Part shown: piece after piece, positions 36,535-45,578 of the stretch
Layout of the letters: the number at the start of each line of letters is the position of its first letter
Position numbering within the stretch: position 1 is the first letter of the stretch
NCBI GenBank assembly: GCA_963714085.1
Contig: OY970229.1
Coordinates: 928,001-992,000 of the forward strand
Source of the DNA: an uncultured Candidatus Micrarchaeota archaeon
GTDB taxonomy: Archaea; Micrarchaeota; Micrarchaeia; Anstonellales; Bilamarchaeaceae
Length of the DNA: 64,000 bases
Direction of reading: 5' to 3'
Notes under the pieces: generated by a model
The model's database searches: none
What the model was told of the DNA's origin: nothing
What the model saw: the letters and a program-made list of their open reading frames with translations, nothing else
Position numbers and translations under genes: made by a program

Positions 36535-36602
36535 GTCAAAACCTCCCGATTCGCATAATAAGTTTTATAAATGTTACTCAGACGGGGTTTATATACCTGC
36601 GC

Positions 36603-36663
36603 TTTTTTCGGGCCTTGCACATAAACTATGGCCTGCACATAAATTGGGGGGTTTGCACATAAA
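36603..36663 (+). repeat. Left end: TTTTTTC duplication plus three TGCACATAAA motifs
   Basis: Motifs start at 36616, 36634 and 36654. Confidence 0.9.
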
Positions 36664-36685
36664 TTAAGGGAAAAAAATAATAACT

Positions 36686-36925
36686 TCATATCCGGTGTTT
36701 CTCAATGAAGGTAAGGAGTTCTCCTATTGAGTGAAACATTGCGCTATCCCCGCTTTGGGCGTGTTCGACACTTCCTTCCCAAAAGTGTCTAGTGAACCTT
36801 TTGCTCAGGGCGTTTGAGCGTATGTCGTGCCCTCTTGCCGATAGTTTAGCCTTGCTCATATCCCAAAGCCGGATTACAAATTTCGGCATGTCGCCCTTTC
36901 TTTTTACTTCGATTGTACTCTTCAT
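36686..36925 (-). CDS. Small hypothetical protein (element cargo)
   Basis: 79-aa ORF with GAGG RBS-like sequence; directly follows the 135-aa gene. Confidence 0.6.
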   Translation of the reverse strand: MKSTIEVKRKGDMPKFVIRLWDMSKAKLSARGHDIRSNALSKRFTRHFWEGSVEHAQSGDSAMFHSIGELLTFIEKHRI

Positions 36926-36935
36926 GTAATCGCCT

Positions 36936-37343
36936 CTAAACTTTCCCTTTTTTCGCCTTGAAGCTCTTCGCGTACTCCTCCAAAGACTTGCCAGTCAGAT
37001 CCTTGACTTGCTTGTCTGCCCAATAGCTCAAACTGACCTTATTGTCATGAGTCCACTGGAGGCTCGCACGCTTTCCGGTGAAAAATCCGGCAGATCCCTT
37101 CTTATCCTTGCCCATCTCGACCCAAAGTTCGTCGACCCGCTCTTTTGGTATCGGAGCTCCGTTAGCCTCGTTGTAGATTCGGCTCCAGAGCTCCATGCGG
37201 TCCTTCATCCAGCTAGGAATCTCGGCTTCGAGTCCCTCCTCCTGAACCTGCAATTCGGCCAAAAGAGTCGACGCTTCTTCCAACAGTCCCTGTATTTTCT
37301 CGATTTTTTCTTTTTCCTTGGTCATAAAATCCTCCTCCGCCAT
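36936..37343 (-). CDS. Hypothetical protein (element cargo), coiled N-terminus
   Basis: 135-aa ORF downstream of an AT-rich, TATA-containing region. Confidence 0.65.
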   Translation of the reverse strand: MAEEDFMTKEKEKIEKIQGLLEEASTLLAELQVQEEGLEAEIPSWMKDRMELWSRIYNEANGAPIPKERVDELWVEMGKDKKGSAGFFTGKRASLQWTHDNKVSLSYWADKQVKDLTGKSLEEYAKSFKAKKGKV

Positions 37344-37480
37344 ACTTATTTTCTTATTAATATTATATAGTATAGATATACTGTTTTATAAATATATCAT
37401 TTTTATCAAGTTTTGAGAATAGAACAATAAAAAAGAATGTCGTCTAAAAGTGTTTTTAAATCTCTTCTTCGTAAGATTAT

Positions 37481-37567
37481 TGGTGTTCGGTACCTTTGGG
37501 GAACCCAAGGCCCCTAACGGGTTCGATCGATGAGATCGCCAACGGTAATGAGCCAAAGGGTGCACCA
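37481..37567 (+). promoter_or_regulatory. Multi-branched structured leader or ncRNA upstream of the RNase H-PIN gene
   Basis: Pairings tggtg/cacca, cctttgg/ccaaagg, gaaccc/gggttc, gatc/gatc; TTTTTAAA about 25 nt upstream. Confidence 0.45.
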
Positions 37568-37577
37568 CATTGTATTC

Positions 37578-39065
37578 ATGGCATCCAAAGTCTACAGCAT
37601 CCCCAGCAAGGATGCATTTCTCGCCTTTAAACAGAGCATTTCGACTCGTTTCACTTTAGATAGTCTGGCGCCCAAACAGCACATGGAAGATTCTTTTTCA
37701 ATCAAGTCCCCGAGCGGCAATCTCAAGGTCGATTACTATGCGTCCGGAAAGCTCGTTTTACAAGGCAACGAAGGCATGCCGGTTTTTATAGCAATGAAAT
37801 CCGAGTTGGACAAGGCGTTCACACCTCTAGAAAAGCAAAGCCCCGCAGAAGCGGCAATCGACTTGTTTTTAATAGATAAAAAGTTCTTTATAGGAGGAGA
37901 TGAAGCAGGAACCGGAGAAACGTTTGGGAGCGCCTTTGTCGGCGTCATTGCATTCGAAAAAGAGTCCCTAAAGCAGCTCGCCGATTTCATTAAAGTGCGC
38001 GATGTGAAAAATGAGGGTAGGCAGGGCATCGGAAGCTTATTCCGTGCTGCCAAAAAACACATGTCAGCTTACAGAATAACCCCGATTACGGCATACCAGC
38101 TCGACATAAACAACAAGAATGTTCTTTTGGACGAGACATATGTTTCGCTTTTAAAAGAGCTGAAAGAGTATCTGCCCGCTTCCTGCATCATCATAGATGA
38201 TTACGGCGCAGGCCCACACTTACGTAATTTTTTGAAGAAATGCGAAGCAGAAGGCGCCCGCGTAATATTGGTCAACAAAGCCGATGCAACATACCTACCG
38301 TCGATGCTTGCTTCTGTTGTTGCCAGGGATGCGCGCCTGGAGGACATGGAGAAGTTGTCAGCAGAAAATGTCCTGATTAATAACGAGACAAACGAAAGCA
38401 TCGCCTTCACAAGCGGAAGCCCCTCAGATTCCAGCACGGAAAAATGGCTTCGGGAGTATAGGAAGATTAATCCGCACTCAGATTTTCCGCCTTTTGTCAG
38501 GAGAAAATGGGCTAATGTAATTCGGATTGAAAAAGAAGTCCCCAAGTCCAGCTTCGAGTACGCTTATACTTGCGCAAACTGCAAAGAAAAGGTGGGCAAA
38601 TCGTATTTTACCTTTCATAAAATAAAGAACGCGACTGAAATGCTATGCGCATGCGGTGCACCCATCGGAAAAAGCGAGATTACTACGACGTTCGGTAAAT
38701 GCTCGTTGGTACTAGATACGAGTGCCGTGATTGGCCGGATTCTTTCAAAGGACTTAGAGACATCGAGGTTAACGGCGGGCATGAAGGTTATACTACCTTC
38801 GTGTCTATATGAAGAATTAGACAAAAAAGAACCGGACAAAAGAAGGGGGGCTCTTCGCGAAATCGATTTTCTGAAGAAGAAAAGCGACGAAGGACTTATT
38901 CGGTTTGAAGAAGCGGATGTGTCTGCATGGGTTGGCATGTCATATGATGATCAAATCAAATATCTAGCGCAAACAAAAAAGGCAATTCTTTTGACCCAAG
39001 ACCGGAATCTCGCTGCTTGGACCGCCCTGGGGACATTCGTGTTCGAGATTAAGGTATTCGGCTAG
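37578..39065 (+). CDS. Fusion: TBP-like domain, RNase HII/HIII nuclease, Zn finger, PIN domain
   Basis: YYASGKLVLQG; IGGDEAGTGETFG, IIDDY, KAD....SMLAS..AR, SGSPSD..T..WL; CANC/CACG; VLDTSAVI...EEL...DD...LLTQDRNL. Confidence 0.8.
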   Translation: MASKVYSIPSKDAFLAFKQSISTRFTLDSLAPKQHMEDSFSIKSPSGNLKVDYYASGKLVLQGNEGMPVFIAMKSELDKAFTPLEKQSPAEAAIDLFLIDKKFFIGGDEAGTGETFGSAFVGVIAFEKESLKQLADFIKVRDVKNEGRQGIGSLFRAAKKHMSAYRITPITAYQLDINNKNVLLDETYVSLLKELKEYLPASCIIIDDYGAGPHLRNFLKKCEAEGARVILVNKADATYLPSMLASVVARDARLEDMEKLSAENVLINNETNESIAFTSGSPSDSSTEKWLREYRKINPHSDFPPFVRRKWANVIRIEKEVPKSSFEYAYTCANCKEKVGKSYFTFHKIKNATEMLCACGAPIGKSEITTTFGKCSLVLDTSAVIGRILSKDLETSRLTAGMKVILPSCLYEELDKKEPDKRRGALREIDFLKKKSDEGLIRFEEADVSAWVGMSYDDQIKYLAQTKKAILLTQDRNLAAWTALGTFVFEIKVFG

Positions 39066-39153
39066 TTTGTTTGTCTATAAAAGACTGGCGATGCGGGCTC
39101 CAAGTAACCAAAAACTAAACTAACAAGAAGCCAGGCGCGGTTATTCTACTCCC

Positions 39154-39178
39154 AACGACTTGACGAACTCCAGTCGTT
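39154..39178. terminator. Hairpin between convergent cargo genes
   Basis: aacgact (39154-60) pairs with agtcgtt (39172-78). Confidence 0.4.
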
Positions 39179-41855
39179 ATTTTGGTGGTTTAAACGCCCT
39201 AAGAATGAATTGTGCTTCGGCAGTATCAAGTTTTAAGGTGGATTCTAGTTTATGCCTCGCATCTATCCTCTTTTTCTTGGCTTCCTGCTCCAACTTCTGA
39301 GCGTCCATCAAGTTATTAACAAGCTCTCTAGAAAGATCTGCTGGGGGTAGAGGCATTTTAATAGAAGAAATTGTGTTCCATTTAACCCTTGTTCTATTGA
39401 CTCCAGTTGCAGTTAATAGTAAATCTGCCCGAACTTCTGGTGTTCGTAATAGCATCCATACGATGTATGGATCAAAACCAGCTTTTGCTTTCAAAATAGT
39501 GAATTCTTTAGCTACTACACAACCGTCAAATTCGGGCAGAACTACTGCCGCCGCACCATACGTTGCGCTGATGTGGCTAATAACAATTTGGCCAGTATGA
39601 ACACGATACAATTCTGGATATTTGCAATCCGATGCTAACTGTTCATCTCCCTTTCTTGCAAATCCGTCATATGTAACTAAGAGAAACGAGACACTTTCAC
39701 TAGATTCAGAAGTATCGATAACATCTTCTTCACTTGGTTCAATAGGTTCGACAAGTTCGGATAGACTAGCTACTCGAAGACCCATATTAGTCCAGTTACG
39801 AATCTGACGGCCTGGAGTTTCAAGGCACGATTTTACATCCATTCTATCGGCGATGCGGGAGGACGGCACTACGAATTTCCTGACTGATGGGTCACCATTT
39901 AGGAATCGGTGGAATAGTTCGACAACCGTTTTTATTTCAGAAATGGCGTTTTGCCGATTAATCGCATCAATGGGAAGAATTCTTTGACGTGCAGGGTCAT
40001 CAAGTCCGATATGTATGCAACCATACATGAATACAGAACCTTGCTCTTGCATGGCTCCCTCTGTTTTAGCATCGTCTTCATCAGCTTTTTTTTCGAGGTA
40101 TAGTAGAGAGGTTTTTACTCTTGCTTGTGAACGCTGAAATGCATCTCCGGGTAGGGAGATGACTGCTTTGACAATGAACTTTTTTCGTATAAAATCTCTA
40201 ACCCAACTCATATCAGAACCACTAAGTATGCCGTCATCGATAACTGTTACCATCCTTCCGCCAGTTTTCAGGAGGTCATAGTATCGTTCGAGAAACATGA
40301 TGCTTGATTTCAAACCTTCTCTCGGAGTTTTCTGGCCATTTTCTAAGTTAAAACCTAGTTCATATTGATCAAGAACCTTAGCCTCGGAAGGCGTTTTTCG
40401 GTCATACGTTTTAGCAAACGGTGGGTTGGTTATAACTACATCTGCAAATCCCTTGCGCCCGATTAATTTCGCTAGTTCTTTTTTTTCAACTTTGACTTCT
40501 AAACTATCATTAGTCAGTATCGTCAGCTCTTTGTCTAGCACATCAGCTTCAAAGATTTTACTTGCTCCATCTCCGTGCAAATGCATATTCATCCGAGTTA
40601 AACGGGACATGTTGGGTTCTTTGCCAGCATCCACTCCGAATAGCTGATTATCGGCAATCGCTTTTTTCATCTCTGCTTTTTGTTTTTGGGATAACGACGA
40701 GTTTGCATCTATTTTAGCCCATATCTCTACCAATGCCTCGATTAAGAATCCGCCCGTTCCGCAACACGCATCTAAAACAACATCACAACGATTTCGTTCG
40801 AGTTGAATGTCTGCAAGGCGTGTCCCCAGCTTAACTATGCTTCTTGGAGTAAAGAATTGACCCAAATCTTTACCTCGCATTGTTGCGTTCAGGAACCTTT
40901 CAAAGAGACGACCATTCAAGTCTGCTTCGATACCGAAAAGATAGATGTGTTCTAATTTCCCTACGACTCCACTTATGATTTCCGGGCTGAGATTGATGTG
41001 ATCATTAGCCTCAAAAATGCGTTTCGTAGTCCCATCTCGGATGGCCTTTTCAAGTTCTTCTAATAGTTCATGGAATTGAATCGTATCCATGGGATTTTGG
41101 GCATCACTTTCTCTGCTTTTAATCCATGAAGAAGAAAAATGAACATCCTCAGCTTTCACATTAAACTGTTTTAGATTAACTAACTCAGGATATTTCGCTC
41201 TGATAAAGCGGTCAGATAAAAGCTTCAGAAAGACTAGCTTTACAAATTCTTCAAAACCCGCAGCTTGACTGATATTACCTTTCTTGTAGATATACTGATG
41301 GCACCAAGCAAAAGTGGCATTGAGTGATTCGAGGGCGGTGGGCTTAAGAAGTTCGTGCATGTCCGTAGCTGGCATTGGCTCTTTCGCTACTAGGTTTTCT
41401 CTGCTCATTAGCCGCTGCAAGTCTTTGAACTTGGGATTAGAGTCAGTAAAGTCATCAAAGTTCATCTTCACGAGTGGCTTATCAGAATCCCACTCATATA
41501 GTTCAGTAAAAACACCATTTGTGATGAGAAAAAACTGAACTGGATTTTCATTTTTGAACGTTTGATTTAGCATCAGGCAGTAACCTGCGCATTGTGACAG
41601 ATACTTGTGTATCGGCTCTGATGGGGATTTGGCATCAATTACTAATCGAGGTTTAGTTTTCAACTTTATGATGTAGTCCGGCGTATATGGAACCTTTTTG
41701 CTTCCCAAAGAAACAACGACGCTCTTAATCTGAGTTTTTGGGATTATCTCACTGTCTTTGAAGCCCAAATCTTGCAGCAATCGATTTAGAAAAAACTGTT
41801 CTACTGACGCCTCGTTCGATAGATTTGTCGAAGCGCAGTATTTGTTTTTGCTCAT
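39177..41855 (-). CDS. Single-chain restriction-modification enzyme (HsdR_N-like nuclease, N6-adenine MTase, specificity-like domain; Type IIG/IIB-like)
   Basis: PDY...IDAK, GQFFTPR, DACCGTGGFL, ITNPPF, C-terminal HsdS-like region. Confidence 0.88.
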   Translation of the reverse strand: MSKNKYCASTNLSNEASVEQFFLNRLLQDLGFKDSEIIPKTQIKSVVVSLGSKKVPYTPDYIIKLKTKPRLVIDAKSPSEPIHKYLSQCAGYCLMLNQTFKNENPVQFFLITNGVFTELYEWDSDKPLVKMNFDDFTDSNPKFKDLQRLMSRENLVAKEPMPATDMHELLKPTALESLNATFAWCHQYIYKKGNISQAAGFEEFVKLVFLKLLSDRFIRAKYPELVNLKQFNVKAEDVHFSSSWIKSRESDAQNPMDTIQFHELLEELEKAIRDGTTKRIFEANDHINLSPEIISGVVGKLEHIYLFGIEADLNGRLFERFLNATMRGKDLGQFFTPRSIVKLGTRLADIQLERNRCDVVLDACCGTGGFLIEALVEIWAKIDANSSLSQKQKAEMKKAIADNQLFGVDAGKEPNMSRLTRMNMHLHGDGASKIFEADVLDKELTILTNDSLEVKVEKKELAKLIGRKGFADVVITNPPFAKTYDRKTPSEAKVLDQYELGFNLENGQKTPREGLKSSIMFLERYYDLLKTGGRMVTVIDDGILSGSDMSWVRDFIRKKFIVKAVISLPGDAFQRSQARVKTSLLYLEKKADEDDAKTEGAMQEQGSVFMYGCIHIGLDDPARQRILPIDAINRQNAISEIKTVVELFHRFLNGDPSVRKFVVPSSRIADRMDVKSCLETPGRQIRNWTNMGLRVASLSELVEPIEPSEEDVIDTSESSESVSFLLVTYDGFARKGDEQLASDCKYPELYRVHTGQIVISHISATYGAAAVVLPEFDGCVVAKEFTILKAKAGFDPYIVWMLLRTPEVRADLLLTATGVNRTRVKWNTISSIKMPLPPADLSRELVNNLMDAQKLEQEAKKKRIDARHKLESTLKLDTAEAQFILRAFKPPK

Positions 41856-42190
41856 TTCCCCGCCTTCCTTATCCGATCTTTCGACGCTTCAATAACCTTT
41901 TGTCCTACAGGGCAACTACTAAATTCCTTTTTGCTCCAATCAATCATTTTGTGCTCATCAAAGAGCATATCACAATCATCACAAATATACGCATGAGCTA
42001 TTATCGAAACAAGACCGGAATGCGCGTCACCTTCGGAATCCATGCTGCAAAAAGGGAAGTCGCCTCCATTTAATCTAGGAGAAGCATGGGTGCCACACCA
42101 TCCGGTTACATCTACGATACAGCCGCTTCCACAATTTGGGCATTTGCCTTCTAGAAATGCTTTTTTATTAAACTTTTCGTCACTTCCCAT
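41852..42190 (-). CDS. Cys-rich zinc-finger protein (cargo)
   Basis: CPNCG and CDDC; overlaps the R-M start by 4 nt. Confidence 0.6.
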   Translation of the reverse strand: MGSDEKFNKKAFLEGKCPNCGSGCIVDVTGWCGTHASPRLNGGDFPFCSMDSEGDAHSGLVSIIAHAYICDDCDMLFDEHKMIDWSKKEFSSCPVGQKVIEASKDRIRKAGK

Positions 42191-42195
42191 TTACC

Positions 42196-42426
42196 TCACC
42201 TAATCCACCAAATCCAGATACCTCTCCCGGCCTTCAGTTGTTTACCATTAATGCGGTTATCGCCTCGTAACATAAGTAAGCGATGAAAAACCTTGGTGCG
42301 TGTGATTTTCTTATCTTTAAAACGGTCTACGATTTCCATAGTTTCAAGAGGTTCTTGTGCCATTCTTATGATGGAATAAAGATTTTCACGAACAAGATCT
42401 TCTTTGCCGTACTTTTTTCCATCCAT
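42196..42426 (-). CDS. Small winged-helix-like protein (cargo)
   Basis: 76 aa, helical with a terminal GIWIWW beta-wing; heads the R-M operon. Confidence 0.6.
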   Translation of the reverse strand: MDGKKYGKEDLVRENLYSIIRMAQEPLETMEIVDRFKDKKITRTKVFHRLLMLRGDNRINGKQLKAGRGIWIWWIR

Positions 42427-42546
42427 AGATAAAAGTATATATTGATAGATTTATGAATCAACCTTTCCATAAATACTTCAAAATATTAATCGATGAATGT
42501 ATAGAACTAGCTATAACTCATAAAACAGAAGAAGGCACAAAGAGAG

Positions 42547-43335
42547 CTATGGTTTCTCGGGTTTTGGAGGGTAATAGACCCCGATTATTAGCCACTCATT
42601 CCAATTACTCTCTGTTCCTACAAAAAAGTACACGTCCTTTTTAGATAAAAATTCCGTCTTATACTTCTGGACACATTTTTGAATTGCGGTTTCTTCAGTT
42701 CCATATTTCTTTAGCATCTGCCGATATAACTCCAACAATTCCCAGTCTTCTACCATCATATCATGACCAGGACAGGTAGCATCACACCTAAACTTATATG
42801 CAAAACGGTAAGGGATTTTGTCTAATGGACTTTTGTATGGTTCCCCCCCCAATGTCTTCTGCTTTCCTTCGACCAAATCTTTTTCCCAACCTCTTGCTTT
42901 TTCAATTGGTTCGGCATAAAAGTCGTCGATAAATTCTGGGTGGATGAATCCCAAAGACGTGTGGTCCTTATCATACTCGGTTTTAAGTGCCTCTATTGAT
43001 GGCATTAAGAATGGTAATAAGAACGTGTTTCGTTTTTTCCAGTCGCCTTCTGTAGGGATATACTTTCCAGTACGTACAATCGTATCGTCCTTGACTTTAT
43101 GACTTTCTTTCCGTTTGAACTTTTCATTCGGGTTGTGCTCCGCATTTACCTCGATCAACTCGAATTTATGAGGTCTTTTTTCATAAGGTAAATCGAAAAA
43201 TCTTACCGGGTATATCCTAATCCATTCTTTAGCGTCAATGTCAATTCCGGCCATACAAGCCGTTCGTTCATATTTTCGACTAAGGTTGGGGTATGTTTTT
43301 ACCAAAAGAAGAACCTTCCTTCTTTTGAATGTCAT
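42547..43335 (-). CDS. Uncharacterised DUF488-associated protein
   Basis: VKTYP..S.KY..T.C.AGI, WIRIYPV.F, SLG, KF.C....C.GH....DWE, F.VGT; 4-nt overlap with the DUF488 gene. Confidence 0.7.
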   Translation of the reverse strand: MTFKRRKVLLLVKTYPNLSRKYERTACMAGIDIDAKEWIRIYPVRFFDLPYEKRPHKFELIEVNAEHNPNEKFKRKESHKVKDDTIVRTGKYIPTEGDWKKRNTFLLPFLMPSIEALKTEYDKDHTSLGFIHPEFIDDFYAEPIEKARGWEKDLVEGKQKTLGGEPYKSPLDKIPYRFAYKFRCDATCPGHDMMVEDWELLELYRQMLKKYGTEETAIQKCVQKYKTEFLSKKDVYFFVGTESNWNEWLIIGVYYPPKPEKP

Positions 43336-44135
43336 ATATCTACCACCCTGAACCCATCCCGAATCAATTTCTTTTTTATGATGCTCCTATGGCATTTGTT
43401 AACGTCCTTTTCAAAACACATCATCACCGTTTTCCTTACCTGAGCCAACCCTTCAAGATCCAACAACTGTTCTTGAGATTCGGGTTTTGATAGTGCTTCT
43501 TCGTACTCTTTAAAAAACTCAGGATAATCCCACCCCTCCCAAAGCTTATGTCTAAGTTCCCTTGGCGATCCTAAAAGCGGGAAGTGTTTGTATACAATCC
43601 CGTTTTCCTGAAGTGCTTTCGACAACGCTGATTTTGCAAAACCATTTTTCCTACTAAAAGCGAGTTCTCTTACGTCGATTACCTGCTGAACCCCATTTTC
43701 CTTCAAAACACCGACAAATTCTAATAGATTCTTGCCTTCGTATCCGATGGTAAATACTACAGTGTCGCTTTTATGCGGGAGATACCAGTAAGTCAAGGTC
43801 CCTTCCTTCCTTCTTTGAAGCTTAACCTCTTCTTCAAGTCGCCTAACCCATGAGTTGTTTGGGACTTCTTGTGGCAGACCGAGTTTGGTTTTTATATCAT
43901 GCCACGTCATGCCTGCCTTTGTTTTGTTCAATAAGTTCGTGATCTTAATTTTGAACTCTTCATACGTCAATACGTCCGATTTTATTACGACAAGTCCTTC
44001 CGTAGTTACATGAGTTTTGAGGTTTTGGCCTTCTTTCCATCCGAGTAATGCTATGTCGCTGGGTGGGATGGTTATTACCCATTTTGTATACTCTTTATCA
44101 TCGACCTTTCTGGATAGCTGTTTTTGTAATTGCAT
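43332..44135 (-). CDS. AbrB-like DNA-binding domain, HTH-like domain and DUF488 fusion
   Basis: ITIP......LGWKEG; FTIGYEG, IDVR....SRKNGF.K, LGSP, MCFE.....CHR. Confidence 0.82.
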   Translation of the reverse strand: MQLQKQLSRKVDDKEYTKWVITIPPSDIALLGWKEGQNLKTHVTTEGLVVIKSDVLTYEEFKIKITNLLNKTKAGMTWHDIKTKLGLPQEVPNNSWVRRLEEEVKLQRRKEGTLTYWYLPHKSDTVVFTIGYEGKNLLEFVGVLKENGVQQVIDVRELAFSRKNGFAKSALSKALQENGIVYKHFPLLGSPRELRHKLWEGWDYPEFFKEYEEALSKPESQEQLLDLEGLAQVRKTVMMCFEKDVNKCHRSIIKKKLIRDGFRVVDI

Positions 44136-44145
44136 ATCTCTGTCT

Positions 44146-44235
44146 TAGGTACCAATATTTATATATCTTGGTAGGTACCTACATAGTATTTAAATCAATA
44201 GGTACCTAATATATCTGTAAGCTGTTAGGTACCTA
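44146..44235. promoter_or_regulatory. Four palindromic TAGGTACCTA-type boxes in a divergent promoter
   Basis: Copies at 44146 (TAGGTACCAA), 44172, 44199 and 44226, spaced 26/27/27 nt, interleaved with TATA-like tracts. Confidence 0.8.
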
Positions 44236-44244
44236 AGATATGAA

Positions 44245-45471
44245 ATGATACACTGGATGATTGAAATGCCTGAACAAAACCCACCCTGCAAGCACTGCGG
44301 CTCTCCCTTCGTCATCCGAGACAGCGTAATCCAAACCGCCGAATGGGAGAACGGGATATACACCTGCTGCCGATGCATGAGGAGCTTCACCCAAAAGGTC
44401 GAGAAAAAGATGGAAATCGAAAGACCCGAAGGCTTCCAGTCCTTCCTCCCTCCGCCCAGCCCTACAGCGCCTATCCAATGGTCCCAATACAACGAGGCTC
44501 AGGTGCGCGAGAAGCTCCTGTTCCTCGAAATCCTCCAAGACCTGTGCTCCAGGCTTCCGGACGGAGAACCGGGCAAGGTAGGCCGTCCCAGGGCTTCCAC
44601 AAGAGAGATGGTCTTCTGCATGGTAGCCAAGCTCTACGAGGGACTGTCCTCCCGCAGGGTGTCTTCGGACCTCCAAATAGCCGCCCAAAGGGGCCATATC
44701 GCCAAGGTCCCGCATTTCAATACTGTCCTCAAGTACTTCAACGATCCCGGCATGGCGCCGCTCCTGACCGGGCTTATCCAGCTCTCATCGCTTCCTCTGA
44801 GGGACTTCGAGACCACGTTCGCGGTGGATGCAAGCGGCCTCAGCTCCGCGTTCTATTCGAGATGGTTCGATTACAGGTTCGGGCATCTCGACGGAAGGGA
44901 AAGCAAGGCCCACGACTGGATAAAAATCCACGTCGTCTGCGGGGTGAAGTCAAACATCGTGACCTCAATTGTTGTCACCGACGGCAAGACCAGTGACTGC
45001 CCCCAATTTCCCGCGCTCCTGAAGACCACGGCGGAGAACTTCGACGTCAAGGAAATCACGGCGGATAAGGGTTATTCAAGTCGGCGGAATATCGACGCGG
45101 CATTCGAGATCGGCGCCGTCCCGCTCATCCCATTCAAGTCCAATACTACGGGAAACGCGGGCGGAAGCCTAGCCTGGAGCAAGATGTACCATTACTACCA
45201 GCTGCAAAGGGAGGCTTTCCTGGCTCGGTACCACCAGCGGAGCAACGTAGAAAGCACGTTCAGCGCCCTGAAAAGGAAGTTCTCGACCAAGCTTATGCTG
45301 AAAAACGAGCCCGCCCAGGTCAACGAAGCCCTTGCCATGATCCTTTGCCACAACATCTGCGTCCTGATCCGGGAAGCGTTCGAGAACGGGATTTCTACTG
45401 AGTTCGAGGGGGTTGCACATAAAGTTCCGGTGCTGCACATAAAGGAGGGGATAACGTTTGGAAATCGCTAA
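44245..45471 (+). CDS. IS4/IS5-superfamily DDE transposase with N-terminal zinc ribbon
   Basis: CKHC/CCRC, GRP, AVDASG, KIH, ADKGY, Y(2)R(3)E(6)K signature YHQRSNVESTFSALK, CHNI. Confidence 0.9.
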   Translation: MIHWMIEMPEQNPPCKHCGSPFVIRDSVIQTAEWENGIYTCCRCMRSFTQKVEKKMEIERPEGFQSFLPPPSPTAPIQWSQYNEAQVREKLLFLEILQDLCSRLPDGEPGKVGRPRASTREMVFCMVAKLYEGLSSRRVSSDLQIAAQRGHIAKVPHFNTVLKYFNDPGMAPLLTGLIQLSSLPLRDFETTFAVDASGLSSAFYSRWFDYRFGHLDGRESKAHDWIKIHVVCGVKSNIVTSIVVTDGKTSDCPQFPALLKTTAENFDVKEITADKGYSSRRNIDAAFEIGAVPLIPFKSNTTGNAGGSLAWSKMYHYYQLQREAFLARYHQRSNVESTFSALKRKFSTKLMLKNEPAQVNEALAMILCHNICVLIREAFENGISTEFEGVAHKVPVLHIKEGITFGNR

Positions 45472-45548
45472 TTTGTGTGCAATGCCCTTTTTTCGGGATT
45501 TGCACATAAACTAGGGGCTGCACATAAATCGGGCTGCTTGCACATAAA
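45414..45548. repeat. Right end plus adjacent orphan left end: six TGCACATAAA-type motifs
   Basis: Direct copies at 45414, 45434, 45501, 45519, 45539; inverted copy TTTGTGTGCA at 45472. Confidence 0.9.
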
Positions 45549-45578
45549 ATAAGGGATAAAACAATCGACGTCCGGGCT

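Follow-up and report, generated by a model that had tools for sequence, protein, structure and literature searches.

In a 64,000-nucleotide stretch of the genome of an uncultured Candidatus Micrarchaeota archaeon (contig OY970229.1, positions 928,001 to 992,000; hereafter, the window) lies a gene for a 495-residue predicted double ribonuclease, in which an N-terminal domain resembling the TATA-binding protein (TBP), a type 2 RNase H domain, a C4 zinc ribbon, and a PIN domain are fused, and which follows a conserved structured leader RNA. We lean towards reading it as a self-contained, horizontally spread gene directed against viruses or mobile genetic elements (MGEs), a 'two-headed' RNase that in an archaeal clade is kept in check by its own leader RNA. 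The components of this reading differ in strength: a defence role is probable, restraint of the PIN domain by the RNA is favoured with slightly less assurance, and activation of the PIN domain by RNA/DNA hybrids is a tentative suggestion.

Profile and structure comparisons bear out the fusion of four domains that the original prediction had proposed. A profile of 61 relatives matched RNase H2/H3 structures, the PIN domains 3i8o (E-value 1.2e-8), 3ix7, and 1o4w, and, at positions 40–87, the TATA-binding protein 1mp9 (E-value 8.5e-4). Pfam places RNase_HII at residues 105–314 (E-value 1.3e-16) and PIN_4 at 377–478, the latter below the cut-off (E-value 0.013). An AlphaFold2 model from the 61-sequence alignment (pLDDT 94.1) resembles RNase HII (Z 23.5), RNase H3 (Z 20.3), and PINA-type PIN domains (Z ~14), and over residues 1–92 it matches RnlA (Z 9.2) and LsoA (Z 8.0) in their TBP-like domains; a model of the zinc ribbon and PIN domain alone, folded without an alignment, was discarded (pLDDT 36). 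The C-terminus is thus of the PIN fold by profile and by structure, with the five strands and four acidic residues of the PIN superfamily (VapC-like group); the acidic residues are defined in PMC5499597 as lying after S1 and S2, at H4, and after S4. Conservation was assessed over 189 relatives of 470–540 amino acids, near-duplicates included. The RNase H and PIN carboxylates (Table 1), both reported as retained by the original prediction, are acidic in 188 and 175 of these, respectively, with both active sites intact in 174, and the four cysteines of the CxxC/CxC pattern noted earlier, which are predicted to bind zinc, occur in 182. Four members of a GC-rich bacterial branch (P0066, P0131, P0167, and P0195, one labelled Planctomycetota) keep the RNase H site and have a degenerate zinc ribbon and PIN domain. 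An assembly artifact or chance fusion is ruled out by more than 150 full-length relatives. The alternative start at 37530 (511 aa) falls within a loop of the leader RNA, and relatives begin at the position of 37578.

The fusion was not described in the literature we searched, which excluded subscription papers and bioRxiv supplements (e.g., defence-prediction tables) that might list the family; the accessible parts of PMC5499597, including one supplement, do not mention it, nor did a term search of PMC4158269 find it. Apart from one weak lead, the ESM Atlas yielded nothing beyond an unnamed cluster of 240 members that is the family's own. Since relatives are currently annotated as 'ribonuclease HII/HIII' or 'hypothetical', a defence role would escape current tools.

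Residues that determine substrate choice point to RNA/DNA hybrids. RNase H3 is described as reading RNA 2′-OH groups through a GXG motif and Glu84, and RNase H2 as selecting RNA-DNA junctions through a Tyr at that position (PMC4132731). In this family the residue six positions past the first Asp (E114) is Glu in 188/189; position 112, the middle of the GxG, is Lys in 157/189 and Arg in 5/189, the window protein having GTG-E; and Tyr at the archaeal GSGYPSD position occurs in none of the 189. Because the H3-type GxG-E is present and the HII junction Tyr is absent, the domain should cut hybrids and not single ribonucleotides, and we regard it as a predicted H3-type hybrid cutter on an archaeal-HII-like scaffold. 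Of the 'hybrid- or ribonucleotide-sensing' nuclease first envisaged, the hybrid half is the plausible one and the ribonucleotide half is unlikely, a role in ribonucleotide excision being ruled out by the missing Tyr and GRG; the proposed coupling of a sensor to an effector is tentative, and forms without a PIN domain persist by themselves. The 'archaeal HII-like SGSPSD tail' likewise holds in part: the helices are of archaeal HII type, but a Ser replaces the junction Tyr of GSGYPSD.

The domain falls into neither established class. It scores 75.8 bits against TIGR00729 (RNase HII equivalog; cut-off 123.3) and 63.2 bits against TIGR00716 (RNase HIII equivalog; cut-off 161.2), and in a FastTree phylogeny of 183 RNase H domains, of which just three are HIII-like, the 132 rows of the family form a grouping of their own, separate from canonical HII. 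With RNase HIII (4py5, 2d0a, 3vn5) the family shares the TBP-like N-domain, the type 2 RNase H fold, and a GxG (here mostly GKG) followed by the Glu84 equivalent; it differs in its mostly Asp fourth carboxylate, its archaeal-HII-type C-terminal helices, its added zinc ribbon and PIN domain, its TIGR00716 score, its separate clade, and its character as an accessory, mobile gene with an RNA leader. By sequence and by structure, the catalytic domain matches archaeal RNase HII (1uax, 1io2) best and has in common with it the DEDD site and the tail GSG..SD..T..WL..FPPFVR, whereas the window family lacks the junction Tyr, rarely has the Arg of GRG (the 5/189 above), adds the N-domain, and resides in hosts that keep a separate HII.

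The leader RNA, absent from the original prediction, emerged from a comparison of upstream regions. Fifteen copies align with a mean column identity of 62%, and a hand-drawn structure coincides with that of RNAalifold in its 27 pairs, which are spread over five helices and formed in 93.8% of cells, with the layout P1, P2, kink-turn, P3, and a three-way junction whose UUC linker is near-invariant; the UUC/GGC/CCC nucleotides are conserved. Double (compensatory) changes support 22 of the 27 pairs, a level reached by none of 500 shuffles, and pairing falls to 34–47% when partners are slid out of register. Across copies, G-U combinations outnumber A-C by 59 to 10, which places the RNA on the coding strand and disfavours a DNA hairpin or a minus-strand RNA. 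A kink-turn, as outlined in PMC5539422, consists of a C-stem, a 3-nt bulge, tandem G.A/A.G pairs, and an NC-stem; 14 of the 15 aligned RNAs have the standard form without insert, and L082 carries a 3-nt insert. No Rfam 15 family, including DUF3800 motifs, riboswitches, and C/D sRNAs, matched the window island or six further loci at E ≤ 1. A covariance model gave 17 strong matches in 901 kb, all directly 5′ of full-length genes, with the next match at 13 bits, and it recovered the held-out copy at L041 with 90 bits. The host genome has one copy; under strict filters, which can lose weak matches, no copy appeared in 150 other genomes of the phylum or 151 of another class, and in a third group of 151 genomes only the known carrier had one. 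With filters off, 21 negative loci gave nothing above 13 bits. A general host element is ruled out by the single host copy and these scans.

The RNA tracks the PIN domain. The linker between RNase H domain and zinc ribbon is bimodal, with 29 residues in 34/189 (clade A, to which the window protein belongs) and 48–59 residues, including a conserved 26-residue insert, in 155/189 (clade B). Where a locus includes upstream sequence, the RNA is found before 16 of the 17 clade-A genes with a PIN domain, the exception (L051) being a broken gene; it precedes none of the 40 clade-A PIN-less genes (mostly close Nitrosopumilus-type relatives from about four lineages, contig-cut fragments included) and none of the 16 clade-B genes with PIN. 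At three clade-B loci (L091, L095, and L110), just 16–30 nt separate the gene from its upstream neighbour. This restriction to genes with a PIN domain and without the insert suggests that the RNA acts as a brake on a toxic PIN.

Instead, the protein could be defensive and the RNA an ordinary cis-regulatory leader that the protein never touches, acting by L7Ae-dependent translation control or as a ligand switch. Copies begin at the inferred transcription start and mostly end ~10–40 nt from the start codon, T/A-rich boxes like the putative TATA box of the window precede most of them (by eye), and some can refold over the start codon. L7Ae is reported to repress translation through kink-turns in 5′ untranslated regions (UTRs) (PMC5539422), and the host has genes for L7Ae-family proteins. 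Such control would need no more than a bare kink-turn, yet the three-way junction and its nucleotides are conserved; the alternative folds are not conserved across copies; and the strict link to PIN, together with the either/or relation to a protein insert, suggests direct contact. We place this explanation on the unlikely side.

The family is widespread but patchy. A first search gave 66 relatives, 13 of them full-length (31–44% identity) and many 329-aa forms without zinc ribbon and PIN; a filter-free search gave 339 matches at 50% clustering, and a search from a distant member added 168 matches, of which 120 were listed, nearly all of them ~500 aa long. The taxa with named members are Aenigmatarchaeota, Nitrosopumilus, Thermococcus, MSBL1, Thermoproteota, Thermotogota, Dictyoglomus, Anaerolineales, Goldbacteria, and Planctomycetota, and the named species include Kosmotoga pacifica and Dictyoglomus turgidum. 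Of 301 genomes of the host phylum, only the host itself has a full-length match; among 301 genomes of the archaeal class that holds Nitrosopumilus, 10 carry the short form. A canonical HII is encoded elsewhere in the host and retained in all five other carriers checked. A housekeeping RNase H is thus ruled out by the gene's rarity, own clade, and retained canonical HII; and in place of the vertical inheritance in conserved synteny that would have spoken for one, distribution is patchy, mobile, and non-syntenic. No conserved adjacent protein antitoxin of the VapBC type was found across 97 loci, and some loci are single-gene cassettes. Two small open reading frames (ORFs) upstream of the window gene had no match in the other fetched loci, and no copy of gene or RNA was found in viral, phage, and plasmid searches. 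PIN-less Nitrosopumilus-type genes lie directly behind a Helicase_C_2 (DinG/XPD-type) helicase gene at 10 loci (L029, L031, L033, L034, L062, L066, L069, L070, L084, and L113), with a divergent NERD gene at nine; these are possibly a separate hybrid-processing or defence module.

The neighbourhoods of full-length genes supply the main evidence for defence. Of 36 loci with a PIN match, 28 had usable flanks; their neighbours within six ORFs that reach 120 aa were reduced to one per similarity cluster, and the resulting 130 were scanned. Defence genes occur at 11 of the 28 loci (10/20 after close relatives are merged): restriction-modification (RM) at eight, and an OLD-like nuclease, CBASS, and a DRT8-like reverse transcriptase at one each; three further loci have PADLOC candidates. 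The control set, 17 canonical HII loci (three of the 20 fetched were dropped as near-redundant) with 150 neighbours, yielded generic cross-hits only and RM, CBASS, DRT, or OLD at none. The defence-island enrichment proposed as a check on a 'candidate anti-virus or anti-MGE system' is thus present, 11/28 against 0/17 with a rough control, and the activity itself is probable. At L095 and L110 the gene sits within an RM operon, between methyltransferase and specificity genes. At L103, L104, L106, and L112 it is the sole gene of an integron cassette, with an attC-like hairpin after it, at L112 the first cassette, adjoining the integron integrase; anti-phage genes, one of them for a PIN protein, have been reported from integron cassettes (bioRxiv 2024.07.02.601719). 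Other cassettes of the L103 and L104 arrays encode a DRT8-like reverse transcriptase with a HEPN gene, a Hjc-like nuclease, and an HD-CE/eIF2B fusion. An integrase, a transposase, or Cas1 plus PolB lies nearby at 7/28 loci, and the vehicles seen are transposons, a casposon-like element, and integrative elements; the casposon-like element (L041:8642-15231) holds the full-length gene and its RNA, with a solo Cas1 on one side and a family B DNA polymerase on the other.

Several observations weigh against our interpretation. Neither defence nor mobility genes occur at six of the 28 loci (L040, L046, L049, L052, L087, and L093). Generic cross-hits were discounted by judgement in both test and control sets, and the Fisher p-values of 0.0006–0.003 are overstated, the control loci coming from one archaeal phylum, the test loci from mixed taxa, and kin being non-independent. 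PADLOC 2.0 has no family for the window protein (P0001) at E ≤ 0.1 and gave one match (P0005, E 0.05) among six family members. No neighbour is conserved family-wide across the 97 loci, leaving the gene without a conserved partner. Genes that lack the PIN domain are complete, 26 loci showing no trace of one, and they nest inside clade A, where they arose several times (FastTree), so the RNase H unit is useful alone. Since they represent about four lineages, the co-loss of RNA and PIN has recurred but does not amount to 40 independent events. In clade B the PIN is intact although no RNA is detectable, so the RNA is not obligatory, and the window RNA by itself is not unusually stable (z −0.47), the evidence for it being covariation.

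One rival explanation is a mobile enzyme of genome maintenance, which would act as an RNase H3 substitute and clear R-loops and primers for hosts or integrated elements while the PIN domain trims the released RNA, its presence in defence islands merely reflecting shared mobile vehicles. H3 is proposed to take the place of H1 (PMC4132731), forms without PIN survive in Nitrososphaerota, with the helicase and NERD neighbours described above, and some full-length loci, such as L040, lie among housekeeping genes. We nevertheless consider it unlikely, as a repair enzyme would be expected neither between RM methyltransferase and specificity genes, nor as a stand-alone cassette among defence-type cassettes, nor with a dedicated RNA lost together with PIN; moreover, the gene is rare in every lineage searched. 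A selfish addiction module, with the PIN as toxin, the leader as an unstable type III-like antitoxin that stabilises the carrier element, and any antiviral effect secondary, would fit the co-loss of RNA and PIN, the mobile vehicles, and the reported neutralisation of AbiF in cis and trans by an upstream noncoding RNA (bioRxiv 2025.04.15.648962), but is quite improbable, since in clade B (155/189) no RNA is detectable and space for one is often lacking, and the intact RNase H unit would go unexplained.

The family works like known RNase-effector defence systems and belongs to none of them. RNase LS (RnlA/LsoA, with RNase H-HEPN and TBP-HEPN forms) is anti-phage and likewise has TBP-like domains, some members also having an RNase H module, and such 'two-headed RNases' have been proposed to target RNA in hybrids (PMC3710099, PMC8266594). 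Its effector, however, is HEPN, its RNase H is of caulimovirus/H1 type, and it depends on a protein antitoxin, RnlB, to which nothing here corresponds. The PrrC anticodon nuclease, described as an RNase gene inside a type I RM operon that serves as a second line of defence (PMC1484252), recalls L095 and L110; PrrC is nonetheless an ABC-ATPase-HEPN protein that is always RM-linked, whereas the window family is RM-linked at 8/28 loci, with types I, II, and III alike, and it shows neither the ABC ATPase plus HEPN nor the constant type Ic linkage of PrrC/RloC. AbiF with its RCd22/abiF RNA, a toxic RNase family whose dedicated noncoding RNA is reported to repress in cis and neutralise in trans, is in our analysis the closest precedent for a PIN-restraining leader; AbiF is a bacterial HEPN-type protein with an unrelated RNA and demonstrated binding (bioRxiv 2025.04.15.648962), whereas here binding is only predicted, and a dedicated RNA beside the toxin gene, as in type III-like toxin–antitoxin systems, is confined to clade A (16/17). 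DUF3800 RNA motifs (PMC5737381) are also structured RNAs tied to one protein family, but they lie on either side of the gene and rarely in 5′ UTRs, whereas the window leader is always 5′ and sense, with no Rfam match. The Cosus/Brc24 cassette likewise encodes a PIN protein that protects against phage, but as a stand-alone PIN12 protein without RNase H (bioRxiv 2024.07.02.601719).

A mechanism consistent with our reading can be outlined. By sequence and fold, the N-domain and RNase H domain form an RNase-H3-like unit, which, judging from RNase H3 determinants, would bind hybrids and cut their RNA, sparing single embedded ribonucleotides; the hybrids could come from an invader's R-loops, replication primers, or reverse-transcription intermediates. 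The zinc ribbon and PIN domain, whose site is intact, would act as a second, toxic endoribonuclease on structured cellular or viral RNA, leading to abortive infection or dormancy. The kink-turn RNA, which would form the transcript's 5′ end, probably serves to restrain the PIN, a role its distribution suggests; the protein would probably bind its own leader, giving feedback in cis and possibly an antitoxin in trans, and because the leader holds a kink-turn, L7Ae may bind and stabilise the kink. In clade B the 26-residue insert would take the RNA's place. Infection might lift the brake, we guess, through hybrid accumulation at the H3 unit or through loss of the RNA after host shut-off; alternatively, the two nucleases may act in parallel. 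A bolder version, which we think doubtful, would make this a new class of ribonucleoprotein immune system: the RNA, with L7Ae, would dock on the zinc-PIN module as antitoxin, and the protein's own RNase H3-like unit, triggered by RNA/DNA hybrids or invader single-stranded DNA, would cut this brake and free the PIN, the clade-B peptide having replaced the RNA in a natural RNA-for-protein inhibitor swap within one family.

The gene travels as transposon cargo, as first proposed: in the 1.57-Mb, single-contig host genome, where TFB, TBP, primase, and Cdc6 genes of archaeal type lie nearby, an island of low GC between the TFB gene and a DUF655 gene has element ends, inverted terminal repeats, and a perfect 9-bp target duplication (Table 1). 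With its DDE transposase the element has the features of the IS5 family, although the best curated IS5-family model, NF033579, falls below its cut-off; we take the ends to resemble the IS903 group. Eight perfect TGCACATAAA boxes in all are grouped at the two ends of the island, an anatomy shared with related transposases. The cargo comprises the double-ribonuclease gene, a single-chain RM enzyme with nuclease, N6 methyltransferase, and specificity regions, a PDC-M19-like pair, one member of which (DUF488) has what we assume to be an AbrB-like N-terminus, and small ORFs, four of which (79, 135, 112, and 76 aa; 36686-37343 and 41852-42426) have no confident family and no counterpart in the other fetched loci.

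Table 1. Coordinates of the double-ribonuclease gene, its leader RNA, and the carrier transposon in the window
Feature	Position	Strand	Remarks
Putative archaeal TATA box TTTTTAAA	37453..37460	+	~21 nt before the RNA; inference from sequence
Conserved structured leader RNA, 87 nt	37481..37567	+	ends 10 nt before ATG
Kink-turn	37500..37552	+	GGA 37500-37502 opposite 3-nt bulge and GA(G) 37547-37552
Four-domain double-ribonuclease gene, 495 aa	37578..39065	+	clade A
TBP-like N-domain, aa 1-85, RNase H3/RnlA type	37578..37832	+	2d0a, 3vn5 align over N-domain and catalytic domain
Type 2 RNase H domain, aa 100-322	37875..38543	+	D108 E109 D207 D236; H3-type GxG-E114
C4 zinc ribbon	38553..38693	+	C332 C335 C357 C359
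PIN domain, aa 374-493, PINA/YacL-like fold	38697..39056	+	D380 E413 D457 D475
IS5-like cargo transposon, 8,876 bp	36611..45486	.	cargo GC 42%, flanks 58-60%
Left target-site duplication, 9 bp, CTTTTTTCG	36602..36610	.	perfect copy of right one
Right target-site duplication, 9 bp, CTTTTTTCG	45487..45495	.	
Transposon left end: terminal repeat and three TGCACATAAA boxes	36611..36676	+	
Transposon right end: two internal boxes in transposase 3′ end, then inverted terminal repeat	45414..45486	-	
Single-chain RM enzyme, Type IIG-like	39177..41855	-	convergent with double-ribonuclease gene
Dual-OB protein, PDC-M19B-like	42547..43335	-	
DUF488 protein, PDC-M19A-like	43332..44135	-	
DDE transposase, IS5-like	44245..45471	+	PF01609 E 1e-20; NF033579 118.7 bits (cut-off 140)

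The carrier belongs to an apparently defence-dedicated family of cargo transposons of small-genome archaea. Transposase homologues occur in 45 of 301 genomes of the phylum, and six siblings were examined (L144, L145, L147, L148, L149, and L151), IS5-like elements of 3–8 kb with triple-box left ends. Perfect 9-bp duplications flank four of the six, and all six have PADLOC defence matches (RM genes in five, PDC-M19 in one), their cargo including type II RM, Vsr, a ShosA/DprA-like gene, a pAgo-associated-like gene, and PDC-M19. An orphan second left end (45496-45561) directly follows the right target duplication, and at L151 the bases past the duplication likewise start like a transposon end; the element may favour insertion sites that adjoin its own end sequences. 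A 79-nt direct repeat is not an att/dif site but two transposon left ends. Three palindromic TAGGTACCTA boxes at 27-bp spacing (44172-44235), between the transposase and the divergent DUF488 gene, are likely operators; similar boxes flank the transposase in L082, near which lies a small ORF, presumably AbrB-like, and are also found in L134 and L141. The insertion point, 36611, is ~17 bp upstream of a TATA-like box (36586-36593, minus strand) of the host TFB gene, so that insertion could alter its expression. Elsewhere in the host, a Cas12f/TnpB-like gene lies ~4 kb from the canonical RNase HII (G000:C1 near 1059500-1060500; L171:9654-10601).

If our reading is true, RNA/DNA hybrids would join the signals read by prokaryotic immunity, and a housekeeping RNase H2/H3 scaffold would have been recruited to defence. 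Archaea gain a new class of structured RNA, with strong covariation, that is tied to one toxin domain. The family is also testable, as it offers one gene with an 87-nt leader, natural PIN-less forms, and a natural comparison of RNA with peptide.

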